From positions 48,039-112,038 of the forward strand of contig CAMBIR010000002.1 of assembly GCA_945867665.1 (NCBI GenBank): a DNA stretch of 64,000 nt, in the 5' to 3' direction. The notes beneath the pieces are model-generated. The model saw only the letters and a list, made by a program, of their open reading frames with translations, ran no database searches and was not told where the DNA came from. Source of the DNA: an uncultured Bacillota bacterium (lineage in GTDB: Bacteria; Bacillota_I; Bacilli_A; RF39; UBA660). Below, in pieces: positions 18,693 through 42,945 of this stretch (positions are counted from its first letter, which is position 1; the number at the start of each line of letters is the position of its first letter). Both the position numbers and the translations under genes were made by a program.

Positions 18693-21518
18693 ATGGATAA
18701 GATTGTTGTTAAAGGTGCTAGGGTTAATAATTTAAAGAATATTGATGTAGAAATTCCTAAGAATAAGTTGGTTGTGATTACTGGGGTAAGTGGCTCTGGA
18801 AAGAGTTCTTTAGCGTTTGATACGATTTATGCTGAGGGGCAGAGAAGGTATGTAGAATCTTTGTCTGCTTATGCTAGGCAATTTTTAGGAAATACAGAAA
18901 GAGTTGATGTGGATAGTATTGAGGGATTATCTCCTTCGATTAGTATTGATCAGAAGACAACAAATAATAATCCTAGGAGTACGGTTGGTACGGTTACTGA
19001 AATTTATGATTATTTGCGCCTTTTATTTGCTCGGATTGGTACGCCTTATTGTCCAAATCATCATGTTCCTATTACGAGCCAGAGTATTGAGGAGATGGTG
19101 AATAAGGTTCTTTCGTATGATGAGGGAACAAAGATTATGGTTTTATCTCCTATTGCTCGTGGAGAAAAGGGAAGTCATAAAGAGACTTTAGATATGTTAA
19201 GGCGCGAGGGGTATGTTCGAGTAAAGATTGATGGAGAAGTTTATGATTTATCTAGTGAAATAGAATTAGATAAAAATAAGAAACATACCATTTATGTTAT
19301 TGTGGATAGGCTTGTTGTTAAAGATTCGATTCGTAGTAGATTATATGAGGCGATGGAAGTAGCGACTAATCTTGGGAAGGGTAAGGTTATTGTTGATGTT
19401 GTTTCTGTGGGAGAAGTTTTATTTAGTGAAAATTTTGCTTGTCCTTATTGTGATTATTCACTAGAGGAGTTAGAGCCTAGGATATTCTCTTTTAATGCAC
19501 CTTATGGAGCATGTCCTACTTGTAAGGGGTTAGGTGTTCAATATAAGATTGATGTTGATTTAGTTATTCCTGATAAGAATAAGTCTATTAATGAAGGGGC
19601 TATTACGACAATTAGTGTGGATGATGATAATAATATTATTATGACGCAACTTCGAGCAGTTAGTGAATATTATGGAATTGATTTAAACCAAAAAATTAAA
19701 GATTTGAAAAAACAGGATTTGGATATTATTTTGTATGGTTCTCCTGATGTTTTAGAGTATCATTATGTTTCTAAGAATGGAAATACACGAGTTTCAAGGG
19801 ATTTCTTTGAAGGTGTTATTACCAATTTAGAGAGAAGATATATTGAGACAAAGAGTGGCTGGATTAGGGAGTGGATTGAGCGATTTATGATGGAATTTCC
19901 TTGTGAGGAGTGTGGAGGTGCTAGACTTAAAAAAGAGGTTTTATCCGTTCTTGTAGAGGGGAAGAATATTTTTGAAGTAACCAATTTATCGATTCGTGAT
20001 TTAAGAGAATTTATTGGGCATTTATCTTTATCGAAGGAACAAGCGGAGATATCAGAAATTTTAGTCAAGGAAATTTTATCGCGATTAGATTTTTTGATGA
20101 ATGTTGGTCTTGATTATTTGACTTTATCGAGGAGTGCTGGTACTTTATCTGGTGGCGAGAGTCAGAGAATAAGACTGGCTACGCAGATTGGTTCTAGACT
20201 TACTGGTGTTTTATATGTGCTTGATGAACCTAGTATTGGACTTCATCAAAGAGATAATCGAAAACTTATTGATTCTTTACTTAAAATGAGAGATTTGGGG
20301 AATTCTTTAATTGTTGTAGAACATGATACGGATACGATGCTAGCGGCTGATTATTTGATTGATATTGGTCCTCTTGCTGGTGATAATGGTGGGCTTGTTA
20401 TGGCTTGCGGAACACCTAAGGAGGTAATGCAGGATGAGAATAGTTTGACGGGTAAGTATTTAACGGGAGAATATAAAATTGAAGTTCCCGCTAAAAGAAG
20501 ACGTGGGAATAAAAAGTACTTAACAATAAAAGGGGCTAGTGAGCATAATTTGAAAAATATTAATGTGAAGATTCCTCTTGGAACATTTACTTGTGTAACG
20601 GGAGTAAGTGGCTCTGGAAAAAGTACTTTAGTGAATGAAATTTTATATAAAGCACTTGCTAATCATTTGTATCGTTCAAAAGAAAAACCAGGTAAATATA
20701 AGGAAATTAAGGGATTAGAAAATATTGATAAAGTTATCCAAATTACGCAAAATCCAATTGGTCGGACACCTCGGAGTAATCCGGCTACTTATGTTTCGGT
20801 TTTTGATGATATTCGGGATATTTTTGCAGAGACAAAAGAAGCTAAGATAAGAGGCTATGACAAGGGGAGATTTTCTTTTAATGTTAAAGGAGGAAGATGC
20901 GAAGCTTGTTGGGGGGACGGTGTTAAGAAAATTGAAATGCATTTCTTACCGGATGTTTATGTTGCTTGTGAAGTTTGTGGAGGTACACGCTATAATCGTG
21001 AAACTTTGCAAATTAAATATAAGGATAAAAGTATTTATGATGTTTTGAATATGCGGGTGGATGAGGCTTTAGAGTTTTTTGAAAATCACGCTAAGGTTCG
21101 GAATAAATTACAGGTTCTTCATGATGTGGGGCTTGGCTATGTCGAATTAGGGCAGCCAGCACCTACTTTATCTGGTGGGGAAGCAGCTCGAGTGAAATTG
21201 GCTAAAGAATTGCAAAAGAAGGCTACTGGTAAGAGTTTATTTATTTTAGATGAACCAACGACGGGTCTTCATTCTCATGATATTAAAAAATTATTAAAAA
21301 TATTAGAGCGAATTGTAGATAATGGGGATACAGTTTTAGTTATTGAACATAATTTGGATGTTATCAAGGTTGCAGACTATATTATTGATTTAGGTCCCGA
21401 AGGAGGAGATATGGGGGGGAATATTGTTGCAACAGGAACACCTGAGGAGGTTAGTTTGGTTGATTCATCTTATACAGGACAGTTCTTAAAGGAAATACTT
21501 AAAAAAGATAAGTCCTAG
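18693..21518 (+). CDS. uvrA: Excinuclease ABC subunit A
   Basis: Two ABC modules (GVSGSGKSSLAFDT, GVSGSGKSTLVNE, LSGGESQR, LSGGEAAR), zinc-finger cysteines, 941 aa. Confidence 0.97.
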   Translation: MDKIVVKGARVNNLKNIDVEIPKNKLVVITGVSGSGKSSLAFDTIYAEGQRRYVESLSAYARQFLGNTERVDVDSIEGLSPSISIDQKTTNNNPRSTVGTVTEIYDYLRLLFARIGTPYCPNHHVPITSQSIEEMVNKVLSYDEGTKIMVLSPIARGEKGSHKETLDMLRREGYVRVKIDGEVYDLSSEIELDKNKKHTIYVIVDRLVVKDSIRSRLYEAMEVATNLGKGKVIVDVVSVGEVLFSENFACPYCDYSLEELEPRIFSFNAPYGACPTCKGLGVQYKIDVDLVIPDKNKSINEGAITTISVDDDNNIIMTQLRAVSEYYGIDLNQKIKDLKKQDLDIILYGSPDVLEYHYVSKNGNTRVSRDFFEGVITNLERRYIETKSGWIREWIERFMMEFPCEECGGARLKKEVLSVLVEGKNIFEVTNLSIRDLREFIGHLSLSKEQAEISEILVKEILSRLDFLMNVGLDYLTLSRSAGTLSGGESQRIRLATQIGSRLTGVLYVLDEPSIGLHQRDNRKLIDSLLKMRDLGNSLIVVEHDTDTMLAADYLIDIGPLAGDNGGLVMACGTPKEVMQDENSLTGKYLTGEYKIEVPAKRRRGNKKYLTIKGASEHNLKNINVKIPLGTFTCVTGVSGSGKSTLVNEILYKALANHLYRSKEKPGKYKEIKGLENIDKVIQITQNPIGRTPRSNPATYVSVFDDIRDIFAETKEAKIRGYDKGRFSFNVKGGRCEACWGDGVKKIEMHFLPDVYVACEVCGGTRYNRETLQIKYKDKSIYDVLNMRVDEALEFFENHAKVRNKLQVLHDVGLGYVELGQPAPTLSGGEAARVKLAKELQKKATGKSLFILDEPTTGLHSHDIKKLLKILERIVDNGDTVLVIEHNLDVIKVADYIIDLGPEGGDMGGNIVATGTPEEVSLVDSSYTGQFLKEILKKDKS

Positions 21519-21569
21519 GGAATTCTTTTTTAATGGTGTCGGAAATATTTTTGGAAATAAGGGATAGAA

Positions 21570-22442
21570 ATGAAGGAAATATTAGCATATTTGAAATATT
21601 TACAGGCAGTAAGGAAGTATTCAGAGCATACTGTTTTAGGATATCGAGAAGATTTGATGGAATTATATGATTTTAAAAATGATGTTTTAGCCTACCAGGA
21701 GAAGGATGTTCGTGACTATTTAGAATATTTGTATTCAAGAGGATTATCAAGAAATACGATTTCGAGGAAACTTAGTTCAATTCGAAGTTTTTACCATTAT
21801 TTGGAAGATGAAGGGAAGATTTCTTTGAATTATTTTGGAGAGGTATCTAATCCGAAGCGACAGAGTTTGTTGCCTAAATATGTTCGGGATAGTGATTTGG
21901 AAAAGATGTTTCATGTGTTTTCTATGGATGATGCTTTGGGACAGAGGAATACTTTGCTATTAGAGATGCTTTATGCAACTGGGGTTCGGGTTAGTGAACT
22001 CGTGGGTATTCGGATTTCGGATATTAATTTGTATGATAGGACTATTCATATTTTGGGGAAGGGTCGGAAAGAGAGAGTTGTATTTTTTGGCACTTACTGT
22101 GATAATGTTTTAAGAGTTTATTTAGAGGATGGCTATAAAATACTGAATCAGAAAAAAAGTGGTTATTTATTTTTAAATAAATTTGGAGATGTATTATCCA
22201 CTAGATATGTGAGAAAAGTTATTGATGATGCAGTATTAAGATGTGGGATAGAGTATCATATTTCACCACATACTTTGAGGCATACTTTTGCTACAGATAT
22301 GCTTAATCAGGGTGCTGATTTAATGACGGTAAAAGAGTTACTGGGACATAGTTCTGTTAATACAACCGGAATTTATACGCATGTTAGTAACGAGAGACTT
22401 CGGCAGGTTTATGAATTTGCTCATCCTAGAGGGAAGGAATAA
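21570..22442 (+). CDS. Tyrosine recombinase of the XerC/XerD family
   Basis: 290 aa with catalytic-region motifs: ATGVRVSELVGI, HTLRHTFATDML, LLGHSSVNTTGIYTHV. Confidence 0.85.
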   Translation: MKEILAYLKYLQAVRKYSEHTVLGYREDLMELYDFKNDVLAYQEKDVRDYLEYLYSRGLSRNTISRKLSSIRSFYHYLEDEGKISLNYFGEVSNPKRQSLLPKYVRDSDLEKMFHVFSMDDALGQRNTLLLEMLYATGVRVSELVGIRISDINLYDRTIHILGKGRKERVVFFGTYCDNVLRVYLEDGYKILNQKKSGYLFLNKFGDVLSTRYVRKVIDDAVLRCGIEYHISPHTLRHTFATDMLNQGADLMTVKELLGHSSVNTTGIYTHVSNERLRQVYEFAHPRGKE

Positions 22443-22525
22443 TTCTCTCTTTTTTTTGTATTAATGGTACAGATTTGTTCGGCTTTAGAAGTATTTTTTT
22501 CCTATCAAGAACTGATGTTTTCTGT

Positions 22526-22554
22526 TTGACATTGAAGTGCCTTGATGTTATAAT
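22526..22554 (+). promoter_or_regulatory. Consensus SigA promoter of the F1-like ATPase operon
   Basis: TTGACA (22526-22531), 17-nt spacer, TGt-TATAAT (22549-22554). Confidence 0.7.
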
Positions 22555-22588
22555 TTTATGTAGAGTATAGGAGTGTTCCTAGAGATAA

Positions 22589-22849
<261 letters not shown>

Positions 22850-22850
22850 G

Positions 22851-23615
22851 ATGACTGTTTTAATTTTATTAGCGATTTTTTTGATTTGTCTACTTGTTGT
22901 GATGATGTTTTTCATTTTAAAAAGTACAGTGAAGAAGATAAATTCTCAGACAAAGTTGTATTTTGTGGATAAGTTGCAAGAGTATGACGAGATGATTGAT
23001 AAAAAGGAAGCCAAATTAAACCTTATTAATCAAGAAATTAAAGAAAAGGAAATAAAGGATTATGAAGAGAAGAAGGGGTTAGAGAAAAAGAATTATGAGT
23101 TTGATTATCAGATTATTGAACTTTTGAATAAGACTAAGTATCAAGATAAGAATTTATTTGAGTTAAATAAAATGATTGATGAGAAATTTTCAATTGATTA
23201 TGTTTGGTTGATTAAAAAGTTTTTAGCTCAGGTTAAGGATGATGGTGCCTATCAATTTTGTCTAGATTTTAGAAAAAAATTTACCAGTGGGGTTATTTAT
23301 GAATTAAAGGTAATGTCAGAAGAAGAACAAAATCGGTATATGAAGCAGTTTTTAACGGAGAAGGAATTCTTTTTGTATGAGACTTATCTTCAGTTAAATC
23401 AGAAGAGTGATATTGATTCTTTTCTTGATTATTTGAATGAGTTAGTTGATTTGAATAATCCTAATATTTTGGTATATGTGGGGGATAAGTCGACTAGTTA
23501 TGATTATTTATCAAAGTATGTTAAGACTGTTTATTCTAAGGAAATTTATAAGGGAATTAAGATAATTTATCGGAATCATATTTATGATTATAGCCTAAAT
23601 GAAAGGAATGTTTAG
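22851..23615 (+). CDS. Single-TM coiled-coil protein, candidate b/delta-like peripheral stalk
   Basis: N-terminal TM, then a K/E-rich predicted coiled coil, then a globular C-terminal part. It ends in GIKIIYRNHIYDYSL, reminiscent of the delta/OSCP C-terminus (G-hydrophobic-x-V-x-x-G-x-x-x-I-D-x-S). Located in the b/delta position upstream of alpha. Confidence 0.4.
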   Translation: MTVLILLAIFLICLLVVMMFFILKSTVKKINSQTKLYFVDKLQEYDEMIDKKEAKLNLINQEIKEKEIKDYEEKKGLEKKNYEFDYQIIELLNKTKYQDKNLFELNKMIDEKFSIDYVWLIKKFLAQVKDDGAYQFCLDFRKKFTSGVIYELKVMSEEEQNRYMKQFLTEKEFFLYETYLQLNQKSDIDSFLDYLNELVDLNNPNILVYVGDKSTSYDYLSKYVKTVYSKEIYKGIKIIYRNHIYDYSLNERNV

Positions 23616-23616
23616 T

Positions 23617-26652
<3,036 letters not shown>

Positions 26653-26654
26653 AT

Positions 26655-27191
26655 ATGAAGAATGAAGAGATTATTCAAGAATTAATTAGCTTTTTTAGTG
26701 TTGCTGTTGTATTCTTAGTGGTTATTGCTTTGATTTTTATGATATTTTGTAAACGATTTAAGTTTAATAATAAAAATATCGAATTATATGGTTTATTACT
26801 GGATTTAAATACGCCCTCTCTTATTTCCATATCGGCTCTTACCATTAATTATTTATTTTTAGTTTGGTGCACCATTAGTTTTAAAGGAATACAGGTTGTT
26901 TATGTAGCGATTACTTTAATTTTAGTTTTAATTAGTGAAGCAGTTATAGATAATTTTAAATCTCTTCCTTTGTCACTTGGTTTAACAATTGTTAATTGTT
27001 TGTCTATTCAAGTTGTTTATAAGTTATATCAATATTTAGTTGAGGAGAATTTTTCTTACATTTTGTTAATTGTTTTATTTTTATTAATTTTGTTTGTCTT
27101 CTTGTATTATACTTATAATTTATTTAGAGGAATTAATAATGTTGTTGTTGGACATAAATATTTAAAAGGAAAAAGACAATATAAAGTATAA
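26655..27191 (+). CDS. Membrane protein with about five TM helices, function unknown (X0-sector candidate)
   Basis: Starts 2 nt after the epsilon-like stop. About five hydrophobic helices. I see no recognisable a-subunit RLFGN-type stator motif within a helix. Confidence 0.4.
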   Translation: MKNEEIIQELISFFSVAVVFLVVIALIFMIFCKRFKFNNKNIELYGLLLDLNTPSLISISALTINYLFLVWCTISFKGIQVVYVAITLILVLISEAVIDNFKSLPLSLGLTIVNCLSIQVVYKLYQYLVEENFSYILLIVLFLLILFVFLYYTYNLFRGINNVVVGHKYLKGKRQYKV

Positions 27192-27221
27192 ATTTAGTTG
27201 TTTTTTTGAAGGAGGATAATT

Positions 27222-28004
27222 ATGGGAAGTATTAAAAATGTTGTAAAAGTTATGAATTTCCATTCCTTACTTCGAGTAGATAAGGCTAGAAAAAAGGCTG
27301 AAAATTATTTGAAGGTGGGGAATGAAATTACGACAATACTGAGTGAGATTTTATATAATAAAAATATTGTCTTAGATAAAAATATTTTAGTTCCTAATCC
27401 AGAAGCACCGATTTTAGATATTTATATTGCCAATGATTATGGATATTGTGGTGATTTTAATTCTAGTGTTCGAAGGGCAATTTTAAAGAATCCAGATAAT
27501 GATAAAATTATTATTGGGAAAAAAATTGTTTATAAAGATAATAAAACGGTGCTAAAGATTGAAAAAGATGATTTTAATCTTAGGTTTGTTGAGATACAAC
27601 ACTATATTGAAAAGTCACTTTTAGATATGTCTTACCGAGAGATTAATATTTACTATAATCATTATTATTCTTCAACTACATTTGCTTTTAAAAAAATACA
27701 AGCATTTCCTATCGAGTTTAAGGGTGAATATTATGAGGGGAATGATTTTGTATCAGAGACTGATTTAAAGAAAATGTTGAAAAGTTTAGTATCTTTTTAT
27801 ATTTGTTATCAATTAAAAATGTGTGAGTGTATTAGTGAAGCAGCAGAAAACTTAAACCGTAATCAGATTACGAGGGCTGCTTTAGATAAAATTGAGGAAA
27901 AAGAAGAAGAGGAAAGAGCGATGGTACTTCGAAAGAAGAATGAAGAAGCGGCATTTAAGAATGTTGAAAATTATAAAAAGGTTGTACAAATAGGTGATTC
28001 ATAA
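27222..28004 (+). CDS. F1 gamma-subunit-like protein (short)
   Basis: GGAGG RBS. The N-terminal IKNVVKVMNFHSLLRVDKARKKAE resembles the gamma N-terminal helix. IANDYGYCGDFNSSVRRAIL matches gamma's (S/T)DRGLCGxxNSN region. C-terminal helix with RNQITRAALDKIEE. Confidence 0.6.
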   Translation: MGSIKNVVKVMNFHSLLRVDKARKKAENYLKVGNEITTILSEILYNKNIVLDKNILVPNPEAPILDIYIANDYGYCGDFNSSVRRAILKNPDNDKIIIGKKIVYKDNKTVLKIEKDDFNLRFVEIQHYIEKSLLDMSYREINIYYNHYYSSTTFAFKKIQAFPIEFKGEYYEGNDFVSETDLKKMLKSLVSFYICYQLKMCECISEAAENLNRNQITRAALDKIEEKEEEERAMVLRKKNEEAAFKNVENYKKVVQIGDS

Positions 28005-28168
28005 TGAATAAGGAAAAAAATCAAGAGGATATCATTGATATTTTGAAAAGTGCTCAGGAGAAAGTTTCAGGAATTGTTTTACCATCAATGGGCCTTTTAG
28101 ATAATGAGGAGAGTATCTATGTTGATGGAAAGGAAGTCATCAGTCAAAAAGATGATAAGGAGGAGTAG
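28004..28168 (+). CDS. 54-aa acidic protein, function unknown
   Basis: Not in the track because it is under 60 aa. Its ATG shares the A of the gamma-like TAA (ATAATG). Product: MNKEKNQEDIIDILKSAQEKVSGIVLPSMGLLDNEESIYVDGKEVISQKDDKEE. Its 3' end carries the AAGGAGG RBS of flp. Confidence 0.35.
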   Translation: MNKEKNQEDIIDILKSAQEKVSGIVLPSMGLLDNEESIYVDGKEVISQKDDKEE

Positions 28169-28170
28169 GA

Positions 28171-28383
28171 ATGTTAAATAGAAAAGGTCAAACTTTGGTA
28201 GAATATGTGCTTATTATTTCATTAGTTACAGTTGTTGCTATTGCGGCTGTTCGTATTTTTGGTGGGTATTTGAAAGATTCTATTACAAAGATGAGTTGTT
28301 CAATGGTTGGTAAGGAGTATGTTGAGGCAAACACGATTGGTAAAGGATACTGCAAGGGGGATGAAGACAAGTTATTTGAGTAG
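28171..28383 (+). CDS. flp: Flp/Fap-family type IVb prepilin
   Basis: MLNRKG-QTLVEYVLIISLVTVVAIAAVRIFGGYL: basic leader ending in Gly, then xTxVEY and a hydrophobic helix, which is the Flp signature. 70 aa. Starts 2 nt after the preceding stop. Confidence 0.8.
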   Translation: MLNRKGQTLVEYVLIISLVTVVAIAAVRIFGGYLKDSITKMSCSMVGKEYVEANTIGKGYCKGDEDKLFE

Positions 28384-28489
28384 TCTATTTTATAATACTT
28401 ATGTAGATGATTTTTTAGTAAATGATATTCAGAGATAGTACTAGGACCATCAAAAAAATCTTACTTTTTTGGTAAGACTTCTTTGGTGG

Positions 28490-28651
28490 TTATTTCTTTT
28501 TTTCTATTTCTTTAATTTATTTAAGAGAAATACCTGTAATTTCAGAAATGGTTTCTATATTAATCTTTTTCTCTAGTCTAAGTTAGTTCATTATTTAAAA
28601 TCGTAATCGTAGCAAGGAAATAAATTTTTCTTCTATTCGGGTATTTGTCAT
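28490..28651 (-). pseudogene. Decayed remnant of a small helix-turn-helix-tail gene
   Basis: On the minus strand, GAAAGGAGAG then ATG. One frame reads MTNTRIEEKFISLLRLRF*IMN*LRLEKKINIETISEITGISLK*IKEIEKKK*. There are three in-frame TAA stops before the final one. The xxIETISEITGISLKxIKEIE part looks like the C-terminal HTH tail of Rpn/YhgA-like proteins. Confidence 0.3.
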
Positions 28652-28811
28652 TTTTCTCTCCTTTCTAAAGGGGCTACTTGTCCCTCTAATTATATTATTC
28701 GCCTGATTTTTTCAAAATCCTTCTTGTATTAAAAAAATATTAATATTTTTTGATTGTTATTAATTTTTAATAAAAAGAGTTAAACTGTAGGATAAAAGAA
28801 AGTTAAGTATT

Positions 28812-28853
28812 TTAGCAATATAAATTGACAATTGCTAATTAAGGTGCTATCAT
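28812..28853 (+). promoter_or_regulatory. htpG promoter overlapped by a CIRCE-like inverted repeat
   Basis: TTAGCAATA-N9-AATTGCTAA at 28812-28838, compared with the CIRCE consensus TTAGCACTC-N9-GAGTGCTAA. TTGACA at 28825-28830, 17-nt spacer, TATCAT at 28848-28853. Confidence 0.45.
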
Positions 28854-28893
28854 TAATGTTAGTTAAGAATTTAACTAGAAATGAGGGACATTT

Positions 28894-30819
28894 ATGGAAA
28901 AAGATAAAGATAAAAAAGAAAAGAAAGAGAAAAAACAATTTAAGGCTGAATCAAAAAAATTATTAGATTTAATGATTCATTCTATTTATACGAATAAAGA
29001 AATATTTTTAAGAGAATTATTATCGAATGCAAGTGATGCGATTGATAAACTAGCTTATCGGGCATTAACAGATGATTCTTTAGATGTTAAAAAAGAAGAT
29101 TTTGCCATTCATATTGATATTGATAAAGAAAGAAGAAAATTAATAATATCTGATAATGGTTGTGGAATGACCAAAGAAGAATTAGAAAATAATTTAGGAA
29201 CTATCGCGAAAAGTGGTTCGTTGGATTTTAAAAAGATGCTTGAGAAAAAAGATGGACAAGATGTTGATATCATTGGTCAATTTGGAGTAGGATTTTATTC
29301 TGCCTTTATGGTAAGTGATAAGATTAAAGTGGAAAGTAAATCAGTTGACTCTGATAAGGCTTATATTTGGAAAAGCGAAGGGGCTGATGGCTATGAAATT
29401 AAACCAGGAAAAAGAAAAGATACTGGTACAACAATTACCTTAAGTATTAAAGAGGATACGGATGAGGAAAATTATAGTGAATTTTTAGATACTTATCGTA
29501 TAGAATCCATTGTCAAAAAATATTCAGATTATATTCGCTATCCAATAAAAATGATGGTAGAGCATTCTAAATTAAAAGAGGGAAGTGAAAATGAATATGA
29601 AAAAGAGGTTGTAGAAGAGACAGTCAATAGTATGATTCCTTTATGGAAGAAAGAGAAAAAAGATATTACAGAAGAAGAATATCAAAATTTCTATAGTTCT
29701 AAATTCTTTGATTATGATAAACCTTTAAAAACAATTCATACTAAGGTAGAAGGTCAATGTAGTTATAATGCTCTTTTATATATTCCAGGTCATTTGCCAT
29801 ATGATTTTTATACTAAAGAATACGAAAAAGGATTACAATTATATTCTAGTGGTGTCTTAATTATGGATAAATGTGCGGATTTGTTGCCGGATTATTTTAG
29901 TTTTGTAAAAGGTCTTGTTGATACAGAAGATATTTCTTTAAATATTTCTAGGGAAATTTTACAACAAAATCATTCTCTAAAATTAATTGCTAAAAGTATT
30001 GAGAAAAAAATCAAAAAAGAATTAGAAACCATGTTGAAAGAGAAACGAGAAACTTATGAGTCATTCTTTAAAACATTTGGTATGCAAATTAAATTTGGTG
30101 TTTATGCAGACTATGGTACGCATAAAGATGATTTAAAAGATTTATTAATGTTCTATTCGTCAACTGAAAAAAAATTAGTTACTTTAGATGAGTATGTTTC
30201 TAGAATGAAAGAGGGACAAGAGAATATTTATTATGCTTGTGGAGAGAGTGTAGATAAGGTAGATAATATGCCTCAAGTAGAAGGAATTAAAGAAAAAGGC
30301 TATGAAATTCTTTATTTAACGGAGTATGTTGATGAATTCGCTCTTCAAACATTAACGACTTATAATGCGAAAAAGTTTGTAAATGTATCAAATGATACTG
30401 TAGATTTAGATAGTGAAGAAGAAAAGAAGGAACTAGAAGAAGCAAATAAGAATGCGAAAGAGATGTTTGAAGAAATGAAAAAAGTATTAGAAAGTAATAA
30501 TATTTCAGATATTAAATTTACGCATCGTTTGAAGAAACATCCTGTTTGCTTAACTACTGAAGGAGAACTATCTACTAGTATGGAAAAAGTTTTAAATGCT
30601 CTTCCAAATGATAATAAAGTGAATGCCAAAATGATTATGGAGATTAATGAGAATCATCCAATTAGTAAGAAAATTAAAGATTTATATGTGAATAATCGAG
30701 AAGAATTAGAAAAATATACAAAGATATTATATGCACAAGCAAGATTAATTGAGGGACTTCCAATTGATAATCCAACGGAGATTAGTAATTTGATTTGTGA
30801 TGTAATTTCAGAAAATTAG
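28894..30819 (+). CDS. htpG: Molecular chaperone HtpG (Hsp90)
   Basis: Motifs: IFLRELLSNASDAIDK, GQFGVGFYSAFMV, LNISREILQQ. 641 aa, with a K/E-rich N-terminal extension. Confidence 0.95.
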   Translation: MEKDKDKKEKKEKKQFKAESKKLLDLMIHSIYTNKEIFLRELLSNASDAIDKLAYRALTDDSLDVKKEDFAIHIDIDKERRKLIISDNGCGMTKEELENNLGTIAKSGSLDFKKMLEKKDGQDVDIIGQFGVGFYSAFMVSDKIKVESKSVDSDKAYIWKSEGADGYEIKPGKRKDTGTTITLSIKEDTDEENYSEFLDTYRIESIVKKYSDYIRYPIKMMVEHSKLKEGSENEYEKEVVEETVNSMIPLWKKEKKDITEEEYQNFYSSKFFDYDKPLKTIHTKVEGQCSYNALLYIPGHLPYDFYTKEYEKGLQLYSSGVLIMDKCADLLPDYFSFVKGLVDTEDISLNISREILQQNHSLKLIAKSIEKKIKKELETMLKEKRETYESFFKTFGMQIKFGVYADYGTHKDDLKDLLMFYSSTEKKLVTLDEYVSRMKEGQENIYYACGESVDKVDNMPQVEGIKEKGYEILYLTEYVDEFALQTLTTYNAKKFVNVSNDTVDLDSEEEKKELEEANKNAKEMFEEMKKVLESNNISDIKFTHRLKKHPVCLTTEGELSTSMEKVLNALPNDNKVNAKMIMEINENHPISKKIKDLYVNNREELEKYTKILYAQARLIEGLPIDNPTEISNLICDVISEN

Positions 30820-30828
30820 GAGTTTTTT

Positions 30829-31698
30829 ATGAAAAAAATACTGAAACGTCTTTTTGCTTATATGATTGATATTATGGTGGTAATGATTATTACACAGTGC
30901 TTATCAGGAATACCACTAATTAATCATCAGTTAGACCATTATAATCGATGTTATCAGGAATATTCTAATCATTTGAAAGAGTATACTGAATTTAAAATGG
31001 AACTACAATCTGCTTTTAAGGATGAAAAAATTACGGAAAAAGAATATAATAAGTTAGTAAGTATTAGTAGTGATTATCAAAAATATTTAAAAGAATATTA
31101 TGATGATAAGAAAATTACTAAGAATGAATATAATAAGATAAACAAAAATATTGATAAGTATTATATGAAAAACTATAAAAAAGAATATTATAATGTTGAG
31201 AGAAATTCGATTTGTTATTTTATTATTTATTTAATTGTGACACTTTTCTATTTTGTAGGATTTAATTATTATACTTCTGGTCAGACTTTAGGAAAGAAAT
31301 TATTTCGTTTGAAAATAGTAAATAGTCGGGAGAAAGGTGATAAGGTATCTCTTTTAAGTTATTTGATTAGAGGAATATTTTTGTATCAACCACTTTATTA
31401 TCTTGTTAAGTTAATTGGGGTATTTGTTTTAAATAGCAATAACTATTATCAGATTACATCTATTTTCTATGATATTAATTATTATTTAGAGTTTATTATT
31501 ATTTTAACGGTAATGATTAGAATGGATGGAAGAGGACTCCATGATTTGGCTTCTTCAACTAGAGTAGCGTCCTATGATAGAAATGGTAATGAGATTGATC
31601 GGGAAACAATATCATTTGTTACTAAAAGATTAGATGAAAAAGTAGTTGCCAAAAAGGAAGAAATGAAAAAGAAAAAGGGAGAATCTAACAAAAATTAG
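30829..31698 (+). CDS. RDD-family membrane protein
   Basis: N-terminal RLFAYMIDIMVV, C-terminal GRGLHDLASSTRV, and a K/Y/E-rich insert with an internal repeat KIT(E/K)(K/N)EYNK. Confidence 0.55.
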   Translation: MKKILKRLFAYMIDIMVVMIITQCLSGIPLINHQLDHYNRCYQEYSNHLKEYTEFKMELQSAFKDEKITEKEYNKLVSISSDYQKYLKEYYDDKKITKNEYNKINKNIDKYYMKNYKKEYYNVERNSICYFIIYLIVTLFYFVGFNYYTSGQTLGKKLFRLKIVNSREKGDKVSLLSYLIRGIFLYQPLYYLVKLIGVFVLNSNNYYQITSIFYDINYYLEFIIILTVMIRMDGRGLHDLASSTRVASYDRNGNEIDRETISFVTKRLDEKVVAKKEEMKKKKGESNKN

Positions 31699-31814
31699 GT
31701 TCTTTTTTCTGATTTAAATTTATTCTTTAGAAAAAAATAGAGTTAAGTATTTTACATTTATGAATAAAAAATAATCAAATATTGTCTAAATCAAAGAAAA
31801 GGAAGTAAAAATTC

Positions 31815-31843
31815 TTGTTTATTTAAACGTTTGATGTTATAAT
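31815..31843 (+). promoter_or_regulatory. SigA-type promoter for rpsU-yqeY
   Basis: TTGTTT, 17-nt spacer, TGt-TATAAT. The track start at 31843 lies in the -10 box. Confidence 0.55.
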
Positions 31844-31872
31844 TGTTACTGAATCGGAAGGGAGGGATAGAA

Positions 31873-32100
31873 ATGTCAGTAAATGTTCGAAATAATAATA
31901 TCGACGGAGCTCTTAGAATTCTTAGAACGCAATCGGCCCCAACCCTTTCTGTACTAAGAGATAAAAAAGAATACAAAAAACCTGGAGTTAGAAGAAGAGA
32001 AGAAAAGAAAAAGAATACCATCAATTCTAGAAAGAATAGTAAGAAAAATAACTATTCTAATAGAACAAGCAAGATGGCTAGTAAAAAATATGCGGCTTAA
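31873..32100 (+). CDS. rpsU: 30S ribosomal protein bS21 with a long basic C-terminal tail
   Basis: GGAAGGGAGGG RBS, then the ATG at 31873. MSVNVRNNNIDGALRILRTQ...KKEYKKPGVRRREEKKK matches the bS21 pattern. Followed by yqeY, as in Bacillus. Confidence 0.85.
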   Translation: MSVNVRNNNIDGALRILRTQSAPTLSVLRDKKEYKKPGVRRREEKKKNTINSRKNSKKNNYSNRTSKMASKKYAA

Positions 32101-32114
32101 GGGAGATGAAGTAA

Positions 32115-32558
32115 ATGACTTTAGCGGAAAGAATTAATGATGATGTCAAAACAGCAATGAAAAGTCAAGATAAAGAAAAACTTAATGTCATTAGGATGGT
32201 AAAAAGTGCAATTCAACTTGCTAAGATTGAAGCAAAGCATGATTTATCGGATGAAGAAGTCATTGATGTGATTTCTAAACAAATTAAGATGAGAAAAGAT
32301 TCTATCGTCGAATTTGAAAAAGCATCACGTACGGATTTAGCAGAGGCTTATAAGCGTGAGATTGATATTTTGAGTGAATATATGCCAGAACCTTTATCCA
32401 AAGAAGAAGTAGAAAAGATTATTGAAGAGGTTTTTGTGAAAATTAATCCTACTTCCCCTAAACAAATGGGATTAATCATGAAGGAAGTGACTCCTTTAGT
32501 AAAGGGAAAATTCGATATGGGTGAAGTAAGCAAGATGATTCGTGAAAAATTAAATTAA
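32115..32558 (+). CDS. yqeY: GatB/YqeY-domain protein
   Basis: 147 aa. Pattern LxERIxxDxKxAMKxxDKxxLxxIRMVKSAI, plus the position after rpsU. Confidence 0.8.
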   Translation: MTLAERINDDVKTAMKSQDKEKLNVIRMVKSAIQLAKIEAKHDLSDEEVIDVISKQIKMRKDSIVEFEKASRTDLAEAYKREIDILSEYMPEPLSKEEVEKIIEEVFVKINPTSPKQMGLIMKEVTPLVKGKFDMGEVSKMIREKLN

Positions 32559-32584
32559 GATAGGTAAAGCCTATCTTTTTTTTG
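32558..32584 (+). terminator. Rho-independent terminator
   Basis: AGATAGG-taaag-CCTATCT followed by T8. Confidence 0.7.
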
Positions 32585-32624
32585 TCTGCTATGATATACT
32601 TAAAACAAGAAAGAAGGAATAGTG

Positions 32625-32966
32625 ATGAGTGTAAAGTTAGAAAGATTAGAACATACATTTGTTGAACAAATTAGTCAAATTTTAATGTTAGAAATAAAAG
32701 ATGAGCGAATTCGTTTTGTGACAGTTACAGCTTGTTCTATTACGTCGGACTTATCTTTTGCTAAAGTTTATGTTACTGTTTTAGATGATACATCTAAAAA
32801 TAGTGTTTTAAAACTTTTAAATAAAGCGAGTAATTTTATTGAAAGGGAACTATCCAAAAGGGTTGACATTCGAAAAATGCCTAATATTACTTTTGTTTAT
32901 GATGAGTCGATAGCTTATGCGCAAAATATTGAAAAGATTATAGAAAGTACGATGGAAAATGAATAG
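32625..32966 (+). CDS. rbfA: Ribosome-binding factor A
   Basis: Motifs: RLEHTFVEQISQILMLEIKDERIRFVTVTACSITSDLSFAKVYV and MPNITFVYDES. Confidence 0.85.
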   Translation: MSVKLERLEHTFVEQISQILMLEIKDERIRFVTVTACSITSDLSFAKVYVTVLDDTSKNSVLKLLNKASNFIERELSKRVDIRKMPNITFVYDESIAYAQNIEKIIESTMENE

Positions 32967-33918
32967 CGAAGTTGAGTTAGATAGTATTATTGAAGTGATT
33001 AGTAGCGCTAATAAAATTGGGATATTTACTCATATCTCTCCAGATGGAGATGCGATTGGAAGTAGTTTAGCTTTTTATTTAGGACTTCTTCAATTAAAAA
33101 AAAATGTAGAAATAGTAACAGATGAATTTTCTAAGTGTTTTTCTTTTCTACCAGGGATAGGGGAGATAAAAAAAGAAACGAATAGTGCTTTTGATGTTTT
33201 TGTTTGTTTGGATTGTGCAACGAGAGGAAGACTTTTTGATCCTTTAGGATCTATGGATAAAAGTATGGTTAGTGTTGCGATTGATCATCATGCGAGTAAT
33301 ACTTTTTTTGCAAATTATAATTATGTTGAAGGCAGTAGTCCTGCGACTTGTAAGACTTTGGTTAGGGTATTTAAACGTCTTGGTATTAGTATTACTAAAG
33401 AAATTGGAGAATGTTTGATGGCTGGAATTATTACAGATTCTGGAGGATTTCGTTACGATACAGTAGATGATGAGACTTTTGAATTTGCGGCTTTAATGCT
33501 AGATAACGGGGTTAATATTAGTGATATTTATTATCGAACGTTTGATGTAAAGACAAAGTCACAGTTTACTCTTTCTACCATTGCTACTTCCCATCTTAAA
33601 TTTTATGCTCATGATCAGATTGCTCTTACTTATATAACAAGAGAAGATATGAAAAAATCCAAAGCACAAACTGGAGATCATGAAGGAATTGTGAATGTGG
33701 GAAGAAATATTGAAGGGGTTGAAGTATCTATTTTCCTAAGAGAAGTAGAGGATGATTTTTTTAGAGTTTCTTTAAGAAGTAATGATTATGTTGATGTATC
33801 TGAAGTAGCAAGTTTTTTTAATGGGGGAGGACATACGAAAGCTGCGGGTTGTGATATTCATGAATCTTTGGATGTTGCGATTAAAAAATTGGTAAAGGAA
33901 ACGACAAAAAAATTATGA
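32959..33918 (+). CDS. nrnA: DHH/DHHA1 phosphoesterase (NrnA-like oligoribonuclease/pAp phosphatase)
   Basis: Motifs: HISPDGDAIGS, AIDHHASN, GGGHTKAAG. Confidence 0.8.
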   Translation: MNSEVELDSIIEVISSANKIGIFTHISPDGDAIGSSLAFYLGLLQLKKNVEIVTDEFSKCFSFLPGIGEIKKETNSAFDVFVCLDCATRGRLFDPLGSMDKSMVSVAIDHHASNTFFANYNYVEGSSPATCKTLVRVFKRLGISITKEIGECLMAGIITDSGGFRYDTVDDETFEFAALMLDNGVNISDIYYRTFDVKTKSQFTLSTIATSHLKFYAHDQIALTYITREDMKKSKAQTGDHEGIVNVGRNIEGVEVSIFLREVEDDFFRVSLRSNDYVDVSEVASFFNGGGHTKAAGCDIHESLDVAIKKLVKETTKKL

Positions 33919-34766
33919 ATGGAGTACTTTTAATTGATAAAAAAAAGGGAGTAACTAGTAGAGATGTGGTCAGGAGAGTTGGCCAGATTCTTGGTACGAA
34001 AAAGGTTGGTCATACGGGAACTTTGGATCCTCTTGCAACAGGAGTTTTGGTTCTTTGCGTGGGTCAGGGGTTAAAGTTAGTAGAATTAATGATGAGGCAT
34101 GACAAAGAGTATATTGCAACGATTCAGTTAGGAATTGAAACAGATACTTTAGATATTACGGGAAATGTTTTAAAAAGAGAGAATCCCCCTCAAGTTTCAA
34201 AACAACAAATCGAAGAGGTGCTACGAGGGTATGTAGGAAAAATTAAGCAAGAAGTTCCTAAGTATTCGGCGATTAAGGTAAATGGTAAAAAATTATATGA
34301 ATATGCTAGAAAGGGAATAGAAGTTCCCCTTCCTGTGCATGATGTTGAAATTTATCATCTTGAACTTCTTGGAGATATTGTGGATAACTGTTTTCAGATA
34401 AAATGTTCGGTTAGTTCTGGAACTTATATTAGGAGTTTGGTTCGGGATATTGGGGCATCTCTTGGAACAGTTGCAGTTATGCTAGAATTAAGAAGGACTA
34501 GAGTGGGGGATTTTAAAATAGAAAATACTTATAGAGAAGAGGATGTTGAATCAGGAAATTATCAATTACTAAATCTTACGGATGTTTTAAATCTTCCTGT
34601 TTTAGTTGTTCGTGATGAGATAGAGAAAAAGGTTAGAAATGGTTGTAAGATGGAAAAGTTTTTTGATGAAGAAATGATAATATTAGAAAATAGTAAGAAG
34701 CAAATATTAGCAATTTATATGCAAGTAGGGGAAAATAAGGTAAAGCCTTATCGAATGTTTGTTTAA
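33915..34766 (+). CDS. truB: tRNA pseudouridine(55) synthase
   Basis: Motifs: GHTGTLDPLATGVLVL and YSAIKVNGKKLYEYAR. Confidence 0.9.
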   Translation: MNGVLLIDKKKGVTSRDVVRRVGQILGTKKVGHTGTLDPLATGVLVLCVGQGLKLVELMMRHDKEYIATIQLGIETDTLDITGNVLKRENPPQVSKQQIEEVLRGYVGKIKQEVPKYSAIKVNGKKLYEYARKGIEVPLPVHDVEIYHLELLGDIVDNCFQIKCSVSSGTYIRSLVRDIGASLGTVAVMLELRRTRVGDFKIENTYREEDVESGNYQLLNLTDVLNLPVLVVRDEIEKKVRNGCKMEKFFDEEMIILENSKKQILAIYMQVGENKVKPYRMFV

Positions 34767-34879
34767 AAAAATATAAGTTTGTTTATTTTTTTATTAAAGA
34801 GTAATAGATTTTTTCTATTATTTTTTTGATATATGGGTATCTAAACCTTTGAAAAATAAGGAGAAAAGGAATCATTCTA

Positions 34880-34908
34880 TTGACATGGGTTTTTCTTTTC
34901 GTTATAAT
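34880..34908 (+). promoter_or_regulatory. Consensus SigA promoter upstream of ftsA
   Basis: TTGACA (34880-34885), 17-nt spacer, TATAAT (34903-34908). Confidence 0.65.
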
Positions 34909-34913
34909 TAAGT

Positions 34914-36239
34914 ATGTATATGGATAGGGAAACTATTTGTATATTTGGTAGTAAATTTGCTATCTTTTGGAAAAGAGTTGATGCTATTTTGAGAAAAATA
35001 TATACAAGTATAGATATTGGAAGTTATTCCATTAAGTTTGTTGTTCTTGAATATTTTAATCAAAAGGTATATGTTTTGGCTTCTCATAGTGTTGATTCTA
35101 AAGGAATTAAAAAAGGATTAATTATTGAACCTAATTTGGTTAGTGAATGTATTCGGGAAGGAATGAAGGAAATTAATGAGATGCTTGGGATTGAAATTAA
35201 ACGAGTAATTGTTAATGTTCCGGATTATAATGTTCGTTTTACTGAGGTGGAGGGACACATTGATATTAGTCAAAGTGAAGTTATTACGGCTAGTGATATT
35301 AATCGAGTAATTAAAGATTCTATCTATAATCGTTTGGATGATGATTATGAATTGGTGACAATGATTCCAAGAGAATATAGGATAGATAACGAAAAGGGAA
35401 TTCGTAAACCAATAGGTAAAAAAGGACAAAAACTTGAAATAAACGGTATAATGATATCAACACCTAAGAAGAATATTTATTCTGTTTTACGTGTTATTGA
35501 AAATGCTGGTTTGGAAGTTGTGGATATTACTATTGCTGGTTTGGATAATTATTATGAAGTTCATGATAAAGGTTTAGATAAAAAAGATGGGGCAATTATT
35601 CATCTTGGCCATGAAACAACTACTGTTAGTATCTTTGATGAGGGTATTATTGTTGGTAATGAGACACTTCAAATTGGTGGGGTTAATGTAGAAAAGGATC
35701 TTGCTTATGTATTTGGTATTCAGGTAAGTGATGGTAGAATTTTGAAAGAAAAGTTTGCAAGTAGTCATAAAAGATTTTGTCAGATTAATGAAATCTATGA
35801 GGTTAAGAATACTATTGGTGATGTAATTAAATTAAATCAACTTGAGGTATCTGAGGTAGTCATGAGTAGAATGGTAGAGATTTTATCTTTAGCAAAGAAG
35901 CAGATTCGTTCACTTACTAATCATGAAATTAATTATATTATTTTAACTGGAGGGCTAACAGAGATTAAATCTTTTAAAAATTTGGCCTATGAAATCTTTG
36001 GGAAAGATGTTATAATATATACAGTTACAACATTAGGTATCAGGGATAATAAATATATAAGTGCTTTAGGAATGATTAAGTATTTTATTGATAAAATGGA
36101 ATCTCGTGGTAAGAATGTATCGATGTTGGATGCGTCAGAAGAGACTGCGTTAGTAACTCCTAATAATAAATTAAAAAAAGATAATGTGATTATCAATAAA
36201 ATTTTTGGAAATTTTGTAGCAAATAAGGAGGAAAAGTGA
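34914..36239 (+). CDS. ftsA: Cell division protein FtsA (start uncertain: ATG 34914 or in-frame TTG 34989)
   Basis: Actin-fold motifs: [37 protein letters not shown]. The ATG at 34914 lies 6 nt after the -10 box. It would add ~25 aa ahead of the usual FtsA N-terminus. Confidence 0.85.
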
Positions 36240-37315
36240 TGAATAATATGTTAGGTTTGGAAATGGATCAATTGGCAAAAATTAAGGTAATTGGAATTGG
36301 TGGTGGTGGTTGTAACGCTATTAATCGTATGATTTCCGGTGGTTTAAAAGGTGTAGATTTCATTGTCGCTAATACTGATGTTCAAGCTTTGAATCGTTCT
36401 CTTGCAACAACTAAATTACAAATTGGTAGTGAACTTACGGATGGTCTTGGAGCGGGAGCAAATCCGGAAGTTGGTCGGGAAGCTGCTTTGGAGAGTAAAG
36501 CGGCCATTGAGGATGCTTTGAAAGGTGCCGATATGGTTTTTGTAACTTGTGGAATGGGTGGTGGTACTGGTACAGGTGCTGCACCGGTTGTTGCTGAGAT
36601 TGCACAAGATTTGGGTGCTTTGACTGTAGGTATTGTTACTAAGCCATTTAGTTTTGAAGGAAAGAAGAGAATGGATCAAGCGGTTAAGGGACTTGACGAA
36701 CTTAGAAAACATGTTGATACGATTATTGTTATACCAAATGATCGTTTGCGAGAACTTATTGATAAAACAACACCTATGTTGGAAGCGTTTAGAGAAGTTG
36801 ATAATGTTCTTCATCGTGGAGTACAGTCTATTTCTGATTTGATTGCGGTTGCTGGATTAGTTAATTTGGATTTTGCGGATGTTAAAACAGTAATGAAAGA
36901 TAGAGGAAATGCTTTAATTGGTATTGGTGTAGGTTCTGGTGAAAATAGGGCTGTTGAGGCAGCTAAACAAGCGGTATCTAGTCCGTTACTTGAAACTTCT
37001 ATTGATGGGGCAACGGATGCAATTATTAATGTAACAGGTGGTTCGTCACTTACTTTATTTGAAGTAGAAGAGGCAGCTGAAGTAATTAGAAGTGCTGCTA
37101 ATACGGATATTAATACTATTTTTGGTGCGGTTATTAATGAAAACTTGAATGATGAGGTAATCGTTACGGTTATTGCTACTGGTTTTGAAGAACCTAGTGA
37201 ACCACTTTATCATGGATTTACAAATACAAGTAGGGAAGATTTGTATAAAGAATCTAATGATGATGATAGTGATTTTGATGTTCCTCCTTTCTTAAGGGAT
37301 CATAGTGATTATTAA
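36239..37315 (+). CDS. ftsZ: Cell division protein FtsZ
   Basis: AGGAGG, then 7 nt, then the ATG at 36239. Motifs: [24 protein letters not shown], and the C-terminal peptide DFDVPPFLR. Confidence 0.97.
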
Positions 37316-37334
37316 AATTGGAAGTTAGATAAAA

Positions 37335-37367
37335 AAATCATACTGTTTGGGGTATGATTTTTCTTTT
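37335..37367 (+). terminator. Rho-independent terminator after ftsZ
   Basis: 9-bp stem AAATCATAC/GTATGATTT with an 8-nt loop and a T-rich tail. Confidence 0.75.
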
Positions 37368-37479
37368 GAAAAGTTTTTTCCTTGTCGAAAAAAGGTGTAA
37401 ATATTTCTGTAAAATATATTGTCTTTTTTTTTATTCTGTATTATATTAAAAATATAGATAGTAGAGGAGTGTGATTTAA

Positions 37480-37680
37480 ATGATATATCCGTCAATTGAT
37501 AAGATATTAAATATTGTTGATTCTAAATATGCTTTAGTTTATATTGTAGCAAGTAGGAGTAAAGAAATGATGAAGACAAATTATTATCAAATGCCTGAGA
37601 AAAGTTATAAATCTTCTAAGTCTATTGGTAGGGCTCTAGAAGAAGTGTATGCTGATATGATTCATGTAACAAGGAAATAA
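37480..37680 (+). CDS. rpoZ: RNA polymerase omega subunit
   Basis: MIYPSIDKILNIVDSKYALVYIVASRSKEM...IGRALEEV parallels B. subtilis RpoZ ([27 protein letters not shown]...GKALEEI). Confidence 0.8.
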   Translation: MIYPSIDKILNIVDSKYALVYIVASRSKEMMKTNYYQMPEKSYKSSKSIGRALEEVYADMIHVTRK

Positions 37681-37682
37681 TT

Positions 37683-38057
37683 ATGAATAATAAGGGTTTT
37701 ACGCTAATAGAGGTATTGGCTGTTTTGACTTTGATTTCTTTAGCTGTGGTTATTACGGTTTCTAATTTTTCTTCTTCTATGAGTTTAGGAAAGAAAGAGG
37801 CTTATTTGCTTATGAAAAATAATCTTATTTCGGCTGGATATACTTATATAGAAGAGTGTGAAAAAGGAGTTCTTCAGTGTGATTTTTCTTTTAGTAAAAA
37901 AAATACTTTTCCGGCTAAAGTCTTAGAAGAAAGTGGTTATTTTAAGAGTTTGAAAAGTCCTTTAGATGGAAAGTATTTAGGGGAATGTCTTATTTTAAAT
38001 GCTAAAAAAGAAAATGGTGTTGTTATAGTTGATTTAGTGGATAAGTGTTATCTATAA
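37683..38057 (+). CDS. Type IV pilin / ComG-type pseudopilin with a prepilin N-methylation motif
   Basis: MNNKG-FTLIEVLAVLTLISLAVVI is the class III signal (KGFTLIE). 124 aa with C-terminal cysteines. Starts 2 nt after the rpoZ stop. Confidence 0.75.
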   Translation: MNNKGFTLIEVLAVLTLISLAVVITVSNFSSSMSLGKKEAYLLMKNNLISAGYTYIEECEKGVLQCDFSFSKKNTFPAKVLEESGYFKSLKSPLDGKYLGECLILNAKKENGVVIVDLVDKCYL

Positions 38058-38242: not shown

Positions 38243-38351
38243 TTCTTATCTCTCCTTTCAAAGTATTATATAAAAAAATATGAAAAAGTTTAATAAACTG
38301 TTTGATTTTATATATTTTTTTGATATAATAAGGAAAGAGTAGGTGTAGATT

Positions 38352-38990: not shown

Positions 38991-39008
38991 CAAAGAGAGG
39001 TGCTAAAA

Positions 39009-40867: not shown

Positions 40868-40877
40868 GATATTTTTT

Positions 40878-42928: not shown

Positions 42929-42945
42929 AAAATTTATAAAATCAC

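Follow-up and report, generated by a model that had tools for sequence, protein, structure and literature searches.

Why does a gene for a Flp-type prepilin stand at the end of an F-type ATPase operon, 24-28 kb away from the tad-like genes of the same stretch of DNA? The question is raised by 64,000 nucleotides (nt) of an uncultured Bacillota bacterium of the RF39 lineage (GenBank assembly GCA_945867665.1, contig CAMBIR010000002.1, positions 48,039 to 112,038), a stretch which we call the window. Here, a gene for a prepilin of 70 amino acids (aa), flp70, follows a short acidic open reading frame (ORF), orf54, which itself follows the gamma-like gene of an atypical ATPase cluster (coordinates in Table 1). 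The original prediction on this DNA held that pilin and ATPase are co-expressed, either because the two are functionally connected or because flp borrows a strong promoter. Our analysis leans towards the reading that flp rides on the ATPase operon as a passenger without a promoter, an orphan prepilin gene captured after promoter loss, so that the link would be one of expression and inherited gene order and not of subunit composition.

The junction between the ATPase operon and flp

The anatomy of the junction proved to be exactly as originally described, down to the base. The last A of the gamma-like stop codon is also the first base of the orf54 start codon, only two bases (GA) separate the orf54 stop codon from the ATG of flp, and the flp Shine-Dalgarno sequence, AAGGAGG (28157-28163), is formed by the 3' end of orf54, 7 nt ahead of that ATG. 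The gamma-like gene had been said to run into flp without any terminator-like hairpin, and a consensus scan of 28004-28170 agrees, as it returned no terminator-like site. The operon itself had been seen incompletely: it begins further upstream, with the c-like and b-like genes, and orf54 had been missed as a real gene. The predicted product of orf54 has no match in Pfam or NCBIfam scans, and the gene displays a ratio of nonsynonymous to synonymous substitution rates (dN/dS) of 0.2-0.6. Its core motif, LPxMG[IL]I.N....[IV].G, which can also be written LPxMG..N...IDGKxxI or LPxMG..N....IDGKDYI, is found at the C-terminus of a longer protein (89-735 aa) encoded after gamma in nearly all loci that lack flp (L018-L080). 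This post-gamma protein is mostly coiled-coil or acidic in the other clades. Orf54 is thus a shortened form of the conserved post-gamma protein and a true member of the cluster, not mere filler, and the gene for the post-gamma protein appears to be the eighth that is conserved in the ATPase cluster.

Within 28004-28170, the only promoter-like match is a weak sigma-70-like one, TTTACC-16-GATAAT (9/12; 28078-28105). It raises the alternative that flp is transcribed in the window mainly from a promoter inside orf54 and is therefore not truly co-expressed with the ATPase. We judge this to be very unlikely: besides being weak, such matches are no commoner than in shuffled sequence (28 found in the scanned region versus 40 expected), and the GATAAT of this one, the putative -10 hexamer, overlies the conserved LDN codons of orf54. 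In addition, none of 10 relatives from the same clade has a match of at least 9/12 in the 130 nt upstream of flp, and in relatives stop and start overlap by as much as 11 nt, which favours translational coupling. The architecture supports well the co-expression that had been proposed, with one consensus promoter ahead of the c-like gene, a terminator-like hairpin at the end only after flp and a junction kept throughout the clade. A dedicated flp promoter in the window, which would have spoken for independent regulation, comes down to this single 9/12 match.

The situation outside the clade of the window is the opposite, since flp has its own promoter-like site in every such locus that we examined. 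The site reads TTGACA-17-TAAAAT (11/12) and ends 17-20 nt ahead of the flp ATG in L082, L164 and L172, where flp abuts gamma, as well as in L170, where no ATPase is nearby; in L164, its -35 hexamer even begins in the last gamma codons. The match is 10/12 in L171 and L168 and 9/12 in L173. Because these sites are present outside the clade, and no match of at least 9/12 was found in the 10 clade relatives, flp appears to be ancestrally a self-promoted mini-gene that was absorbed into the ATPase operon in the clade of the window. Adjacency would have come first and operon fusion later.

Distribution of the linkage among relatives

A scan of a genome collection with the gamma alignment matched 350 species, from which the best 80 loci were taken, with contexts reaching up to 10 kb either side of a match. 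The closest locus, 99% identical, comes from a metagenome-assembled genome (MAG) of Bacilli from the human gut; the records of other relatives carry the labels Bacilli, Erysipelotrichaceae, Tenericutes, Clostridium sp. CAG:302/CAG:914 or Mycoplasma sp. The seven core genes of the ATPase cluster stand in the same order in all of the 80 loci that are long enough to show it, with the exception of L081, in which gamma lies between alpha and beta.

The original prediction had left open whether the junction is conserved, and it is: gamma-orf54-flp occurs in 17 of the 17 species-level loci of the window's clade, namely genome loci L004-L017 and metagenome contigs L001-L003, the latter obtained through a Flp look-up. 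Absence of the linkage from all related genomes is therefore not what we observed. The clade is monophyletic in a neighbour-joining tree of beta, nested among clades that lack flp. Every member carries an ORF of 54-63 aa between gamma and flp that overlaps or abuts the gamma stop codon and ends anywhere from 11 nt inside flp to 14 nt before it.

Gamma and flp are also adjacent, without orf54, in a large second deep clade. It comprises L082, whose gamma is 45% identical to that of the window and is separated from flp by a 45-nt gap, and loci with the orders gamma-flp-prs (L164-167, L174, L176) and gamma-flp-ireB (L172). No Flp homologue lies within 10 kb either side of 62 of the 80 ATPase loci. 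Conversely, flp stands apart from the ATPase in at least five loci. It is found between rpoZ and genes for M16 peptidases in L168/169, with the same M16 downstream context in L175, and in the order spoIVA-hup-flp-ireB-ruvX-mltG in L170, where the genes downstream are those also found in L082 and L172 and where hup, not the ATPase, lies upstream. It follows ruvA-ruvB in L171 and lies in a glycosyltransferase context in L173. As Flp is missing within 10 kb of 62 of the 80 clusters, we reject a role as a core ATPase subunit. Of the two explanations first offered, the borrowing of a strong promoter fits better because of these flp-less clusters, the solitary flp loci and the promoter-like sites that flp possesses outside the window's clade; a functional connection is conceivable and drew no support.

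Such a connection would make Flp70 a working partner of the atypical ATPase, either as a single-helix component of a membrane sector that does not translocate ions or as a subunit of a surface filament assembled or moved with the help of the rotary motor. Gamma-flp recurs in at least two deep clades, and the genes that follow it differ (htpG or p157, prs, ireB); this is compatible with the idea, as are the translational coupling of flp into the operon in the window's clade, the apparent loss of usual ion pumping described below and the surface or fibre proteins that neighbour the ATPase. Moreover, Flp70 is 58-67% conserved between the clades, like alpha and beta, compared with 45% for gamma. 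Against it stand the clusters that keep all seven core genes with no flp within 10 kb, the loci in which flp is alone and the retention of its own promoter-like site even where flp abuts gamma. We therefore consider a working partnership to be unlikely.

Flp70 as a Flp/Tad-type prepilin

A six-frame search of the whole window with a regular expression bears out the earlier statement that flp70 carries its only textbook Flp signature: the product, MLNRKG/QTLVEYVLIISLV..., is the sole ORF of at least 28 aa that combines G-x4-E[YFW] with a hydrophobic run. Flp70 passes the Pfam model Class_IIIsignal (PF04021; 26.9 bits, cut-off 23.7) and falls below the gathering cut-off of Flp_Fap (PF04964; 23.0 versus 32.2 bits, E 6.8e-5), for which precomputed matches are present on many of its relatives. 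A word-indexed search gave 997 homologues, of which the 120 that were listed share 80-94% identity over their full length; another search, starting from a distant member, added 683. One variant, named 'Flp family type IVb pilin' at NCBI, is spread over at least 1000 contigs and accounts for more than 7000 blocks of the collection. The dN/dS of flp70 is about 0.03-0.05, with dS saturated against the relatives compared; a chance ORF is ruled out by this value and by the conservation.

Among 30 members from both clades, residues N3, G6, Q7, L9, V10, E11, Y12, F30, G31, G32, L34, D36, T39, K40, S42, C43, G57 and C61 are invariant. They include the Gly that ends the leader MLNRKG of the 70-aa precursor and, in the processing motif G/QTLVEYVLIISLVTVVAIAAV, E11 and Y12; a transmembrane (TM) segment was found as well. 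The profile of these 30 homologues matches the Tad pilin PilA of Caulobacter crescentus (8U1K, E 5.9e-6) and the Flp pilin 8U2B (E 8.3e-5), with an alignment of 35 residues that begins at the mature N-terminus. In an AlphaFold2 model (mean predicted local distance difference test score 80), Flp70 forms a helix over residues 4-45 and short paired strands at 49-50 and 60-61. The two invariant cysteines bracket the paired-strand segment and may form a C43-C61 disulfide. A Foldseek comparison of this model with the PDB gave only meaningless matches (E >5), the model being too small to inform.

Judged by these signatures, flp70 encodes a real homologue of Flp/Tad-type (type IVc) prepilins, to which a C-terminal loop between two cysteines has been added. 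It resembles the Flp/Fap pilins of Tad pili (8U1K, 8U2B) in being a short prepilin with a Gly-ended leader, the motif G/xxxxEY and an alpha-helix that is hydrophobic for about 20 or more residues. It differs from them in its longer mature part (about 64 aa, theirs being about 45), in the loop added between the invariant cysteines and in its genomic setting, with no tad locus in or beside any sampled context and, in the window's clade, a position as last cistron of an ATPase operon.

Another explanation would be that Flp70 is not a pilus subunit at all. Its likeness to pilins would be limited to the class III signal-peptide architecture of a small protein, either anchored in the membrane or released, whose conserved disulfide loop would act on a conserved partner. 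Conservation over the full length, exposed loop included, would fit such a role, and so would the extra C-terminal part of some 25 aa, which the 45-aa solved Tad pilins do not have, the housekeeping-type neighbours (rpoZ, hup, ruvB, ireB) and the lack of tad linkage in the sampled contexts. Nevertheless, Gly -1, Glu +5 and Tyr +6, residues involved in recognition by the peptidase and in pilin packing, are invariant, the profile homology to real Tad pilins is significant, and Tad-like machinery is encoded in the same genome. We regard a non-pilin role as quite improbable.

The Tad-like locus and the prepilin peptidase

The genes at 1-3753 are the 3' part of a real Tad-like locus. No exact-sequence match was found for the TadB-like protein, and relatives were collected through a metagenome scan (L084-L163). 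In L084, a 94% relative, the region upstream of the equivalent of the window start encodes a YunB-like protein, two unknown proteins, a DUF5411 protein, two SAF/CpaB-type proteins and a 536-aa T2SSE/TadA-type ATPase, followed by TadB-like and TadC-like proteins, a 47-49-aa peptide, two TadE-like proteins and the 315-aa protein; the true TadB-like ORF of the window probably starts upstream of it. The TadB-, TadC- and TadE-like proteins have no Pfam match, and the 47-aa peptide has none in NCBIfam. Of the two components that remained to be sought upstream of the window, a TadA-type ATPase is present in this relative, and a prepilin peptidase was not found by a motif search.

Gram-positive Tad loci include that of Bifidobacterium breve, with the order tadZ-tadA-tadB-tadC-flp-tadE-tadF. 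With this locus and with a Tad-like cluster of TANB77 gut Clostridia (PMC11680825), the genes discussed here have in common CpaB-type, TadA-type, TadB, TadC, small pilin-like, two TadE-like and TadZ-like genes, the last standing here at the end and not at the beginning. They differ in that the gene at the flp position and the TadE-like genes lack Glu +5, that the canonical Flp is encoded far away and that no peptidase gene is linked. The TANB77 cluster, a different Tad-like system, was the one match of note in the literature on RF39 and pili (PMC11680825).

The 47-aa peptide encoded at 1716-1859, where the tad locus would have its flp, lacks the G-x4-EY motif, as had been stated before. In its family, a highly conserved N-terminus (MKEATGE[VL]SMTV) is combined with a hypervariable C-terminus. 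Conserved N-termini and variable C-termini are the usual pattern of major pilins. The lack of Glu +5 in this peptide and in both TadE-like products suggests a candidate non-canonical pilin set at the tad locus. Six-residue leaders that end in Gly are found in the 47-aa peptide, in the TadE-like proteins (MRDAFG, MKDAFG) and in Flp70, and their likeness is compatible with one peptidase for all of them. A gene that stands alone at 37683-38057, downstream of ftsA/ftsZ, encodes a type IV pilin or pseudopilin of the ComGC type (MNNKG/FTLIEVL; Pfam N_methyl), and because of it an A24 prepilin peptidase may be expected elsewhere in the genome. None of the 80 tad loci with their 10-kb flanks contains a Flp homologue.

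A possible course of events

On the reading that flp is a captured passenger, it would normally be, in this group of uncultured gut Bacilli, a self-contained mini-gene that has a promoter-like site of its own and is strongly expressed. Several lineages have it directly downstream of the atypical ATPase operon. In the window's clade, its promoter would then have been lost and the gene chained to the end of the operon via the shortened post-gamma gene, so that its transcription may depend on the consensus promoter of the operon and its translation may be coupled to that of orf54. Flp70 itself would be a small bitopic protein, in which a 6-residue Gly-ended leader is followed by a long alpha-helix of hydrophobic character and, on the extracytoplasmic side, by a short loop that the two invariant cysteines close. 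It could be cleaved by an unlinked A24 prepilin peptidase and used, beside or in place of the 47-aa pilin-like peptide, by the Tad-like machinery encoded 24-28 kb upstream, a use that we consider plausible.

Several observations weigh against this reading. The promoter calls on which it draws are consensus matches, not measurements. Gamma-flp adjacency is found on two separated branches of the beta tree, which needs about seven losses or two gains, and two gains, if that is what occurred, suggest selection for the link. Tad genes stand beside flp in none of the sampled contexts, and the tad locus has a small gene of its own at the flp position, with a major-pilin-like pattern. Exposed major pilins are not usually conserved from end to end, as Flp70 is. 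Finally, the search for a prepilin peptidase, by motif only, gave nothing in the window (G.GD.K) or in some 170 related loci (G[GAS]GD.K).

If the capture did take place as proposed, the locus would offer a clean, datable case in which a free-standing pilin gene with a strong promoter of its own lost that promoter and became translationally chained to an unrelated neighbouring operon, the intermediate state (flp adjacent with its own promoter) being still visible in sister clades. It also draws attention to a very abundant and highly conserved orphan Flp-type pilin, with a putative disulfide loop, in uncultured Bacilli of the human gut.

An atypical F-type ATPase

The ATPase cluster is a more unusual object than its linkage with flp. 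The catalytic alpha3beta3-gamma core is recognizable from the matches of both large subunits to PF00006, of gamma to PF00231 and of beta to TIGR01039, the last above its cut-off. When the c-like subunit is aligned with c2 of Acetobacterium woodii (4BEM), a Ser stands opposite the Na+-binding Glu, and Asp or Glu occurs in helix 2 of none of 81 homologues. Genes for the a and delta subunits are missing from the cluster, both here and in the 80 relatives, and may lie elsewhere in the genome; the protein with five TM segments (5-TM) has no invariant Arg and no PDB or Pfam match. Because the carboxylate is missing from all 81 c subunits and there is no a subunit, this ATPase presumably cannot pump ions in the usual way. 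The protein encoded at the epsilon position owes the label 'epsilon-like' to position and size only; PDB profile searches with it and with the 5-TM protein gave no match, nor did either match NCBIfam. The gamma-like family is small, with 188 representatives (E up to 0.001) among 1.84 billion proteins.

In comparison with a canonical F1Fo ATP synthase operon, the cluster shares the beta motifs and the TIGR01039 match, the PF00231 domain of gamma and a c-like protein that passes PF00137. It departs from such an operon in having no a or delta gene, in its order c-b-alpha-beta-(83 aa)-(5TM)-gamma and in the missing carboxylate of c. A second comparison is with the F1-like X0 ATPases of Mycoplasma, of which Type 2 is a gliding motor and Type 3 is associated with the MIB-MIP system (PMC3369863; bioRxiv 10.64898/2025.12.04.692339). 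These are likewise encoded by some seven genes, among them those for alpha-, beta- and gamma-like subunits and for unknown membrane proteins, lack an a subunit and presumably hydrolyse ATP uncoupled from ion flow. The host lineage is likewise related to Mollicutes, and the records of several relatives are labelled Tenericutes or Mycoplasma sp. By contrast, c-like, b-like and 5-TM proteins occur here instead of the X0 proteins with 12 and 2 TM segments, and scores against the NCBIfam models MSC_0618/MSC_0619 and MMOB1660/MMOB1670 are all below cut-off (408.8 versus 570, 308.7 versus 520, 385.7 versus 600 and 373.6 versus 850). F1-like X0 ATPases have been described as specific to mycoplasmas, Type 3 as recently as a 2025 preprint (bioRxiv 10.64898/2025.12.04.692339). 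The cluster at 22598-28004 appears to be an undescribed variant of the F-type, one that presumably cannot serve as an ion pump and is so far not described outside mycoplasmas.

One could imagine a more ambitious picture, in which the operon encodes a rotary F-type ATPase without ion translocation (carboxylate-free c-ring, no a subunit, 5-TM and post-gamma proteins) that powers a cell-surface structure. Its clients would be the Flp-type pilin in the window's clade and in the L082/L164 clade, and, in other clades, the fibre proteins with SipW signals and the giant surface proteins encoded beside the cluster, which would make it a non-mycoplasma counterpart of the gliding and MIB-MIP F1-like motors of Mycoplasma. 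We mention this picture as highly speculative. Should pilin and ATPase indeed cooperate, they would form a new kind of surface machine. Our literature search found no work linking an F1-like ATPase with Flp.

Features and neighbourhood of the operon

The features of the operon, of the Tad-like locus and of their surroundings are collected in Table 1. The window has a G+C content of about 30% and a strong positive GC skew, with nearly all genes on the + strand. A search of 21400-29200 against Rfam gave nothing relevant.

Table 1. Coordinates of the features discussed in the text (positions of the window; MFE, minimum free energy)
Feature	Position	Strand	Remarks
Tad-like locus, 3' part	1-3753	+	TadB-like to 887; TadC-like 887-1684
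47-aa pilin-like peptide	1716-1859	+	flp position of the tad locus
Two TadE-like genes	1896-2342, 2365-2790	+	
315-aa protein	2806-3753	+	read as TadZ-like from sequence only; no family match
Terminator-like hairpin	22428-22450		ends the preceding xerC/D-like gene, just before the operon promoter
Operon promoter (consensus match)	22526-22554	+	TTGACA-17-TATAAT, 12/12, TG ahead of the -10 hexamer
c-like subunit, 83 aa	22598-22849	+	ATP-synt_C PF00137, 35.4 bits (cut-off 24); without ion-binding carboxylate
b-like protein, 254 aa	22851-23615	+	one N-terminal TM helix and long charged region; named from position and shape only, no Pfam/NCBIfam match
F1 alpha-like subunit, 482 aa	23599-25047	+	PF00006, 239.7 bits; below cut-off for every NCBIfam alpha model
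F1 beta-like subunit, 451 aa	25049-26404	+	PF00006, 226.3 bits; TIGR01039 (atpD), 480.1 (cut-off 462.85); P-loop, GERSREG, ELSEED
83-aa soluble protein, epsilon position	26401-26652	+	no Pfam, NCBIfam or PDB-profile match; kept in all loci
5-TM membrane protein, 178 aa	26655-27191	+	not recognizably an a subunit; without invariant Arg
gamma-like subunit, 260 aa	27222-28004	+	PF00231, 78.1 bits (cut-off 39.9); TAA at 28002-28004
orf54, 54-aa acidic ORF	28004-28168	+	ATG 28004-28006; TAG 28166-28168
flp70, 70-aa prepilin gene	28171-28383	+	leader MLNRKG; mature N-terminus QTLVEY...; C-terminal loop Cys43-Cys61
Terminator-like hairpin, then U-rich tract (to 28507)	28443-28491	+	MFE -32.6 kcal/mol, z -2.77; predicted end of the transcription unit
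htpG promoter-like site	28825-28853		next strong promoter-like site after flp
p157, single-TM protein	44670-45143	+	no Pfam match; about 16 kb from flp

Directly upstream of the operon promoter lies a gene for a XerC/D-type tyrosine recombinase (21570-22442). In L001, L082 and L164, its place is taken by genes for three proteins that the window does not have: one is a giant surface protein, another, of about 450 aa, contains repeats and a Gly-rich linker, and the third, of about 240 aa, has a single TM segment. Proteins with signals of the SipW-dependent type (…GATFAYFTA…, TasA/camelysin-like) are encoded in the window at 48530-49549, 49702-50700 and 50774-51493; in about 42 of 60 relatives that lack flp, SipW-signal genes directly follow the ATPase cluster (within 4.5 kb of gamma), and SipW-like signal peptidases are encoded nearby in L048 and L164. 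A 154-aa membrane protein with a Phage_holin_4_2 match in Pfam (67 bits) is encoded at 12636-13100 among housekeeping genes, adjoining lgt; no further phage genes were seen close to it.

A homologue of p157 comes directly after flp, ahead of an RNase J gene on the minus strand, in 11 loci (9 non-redundant) of the window's clade. The window keeps p157 in front of RNase J, and between flp and p157 (28384-44669) it contains htpG, ftsA/ftsZ, a gene for a sporulation-type sigma factor and a gene that resembles, by eye, that of a GH25 lysozyme, among others. As p157 directly follows flp in the 11 clade loci and lies 16 kb away here, the block between flp and p157 has been inserted or transposed.

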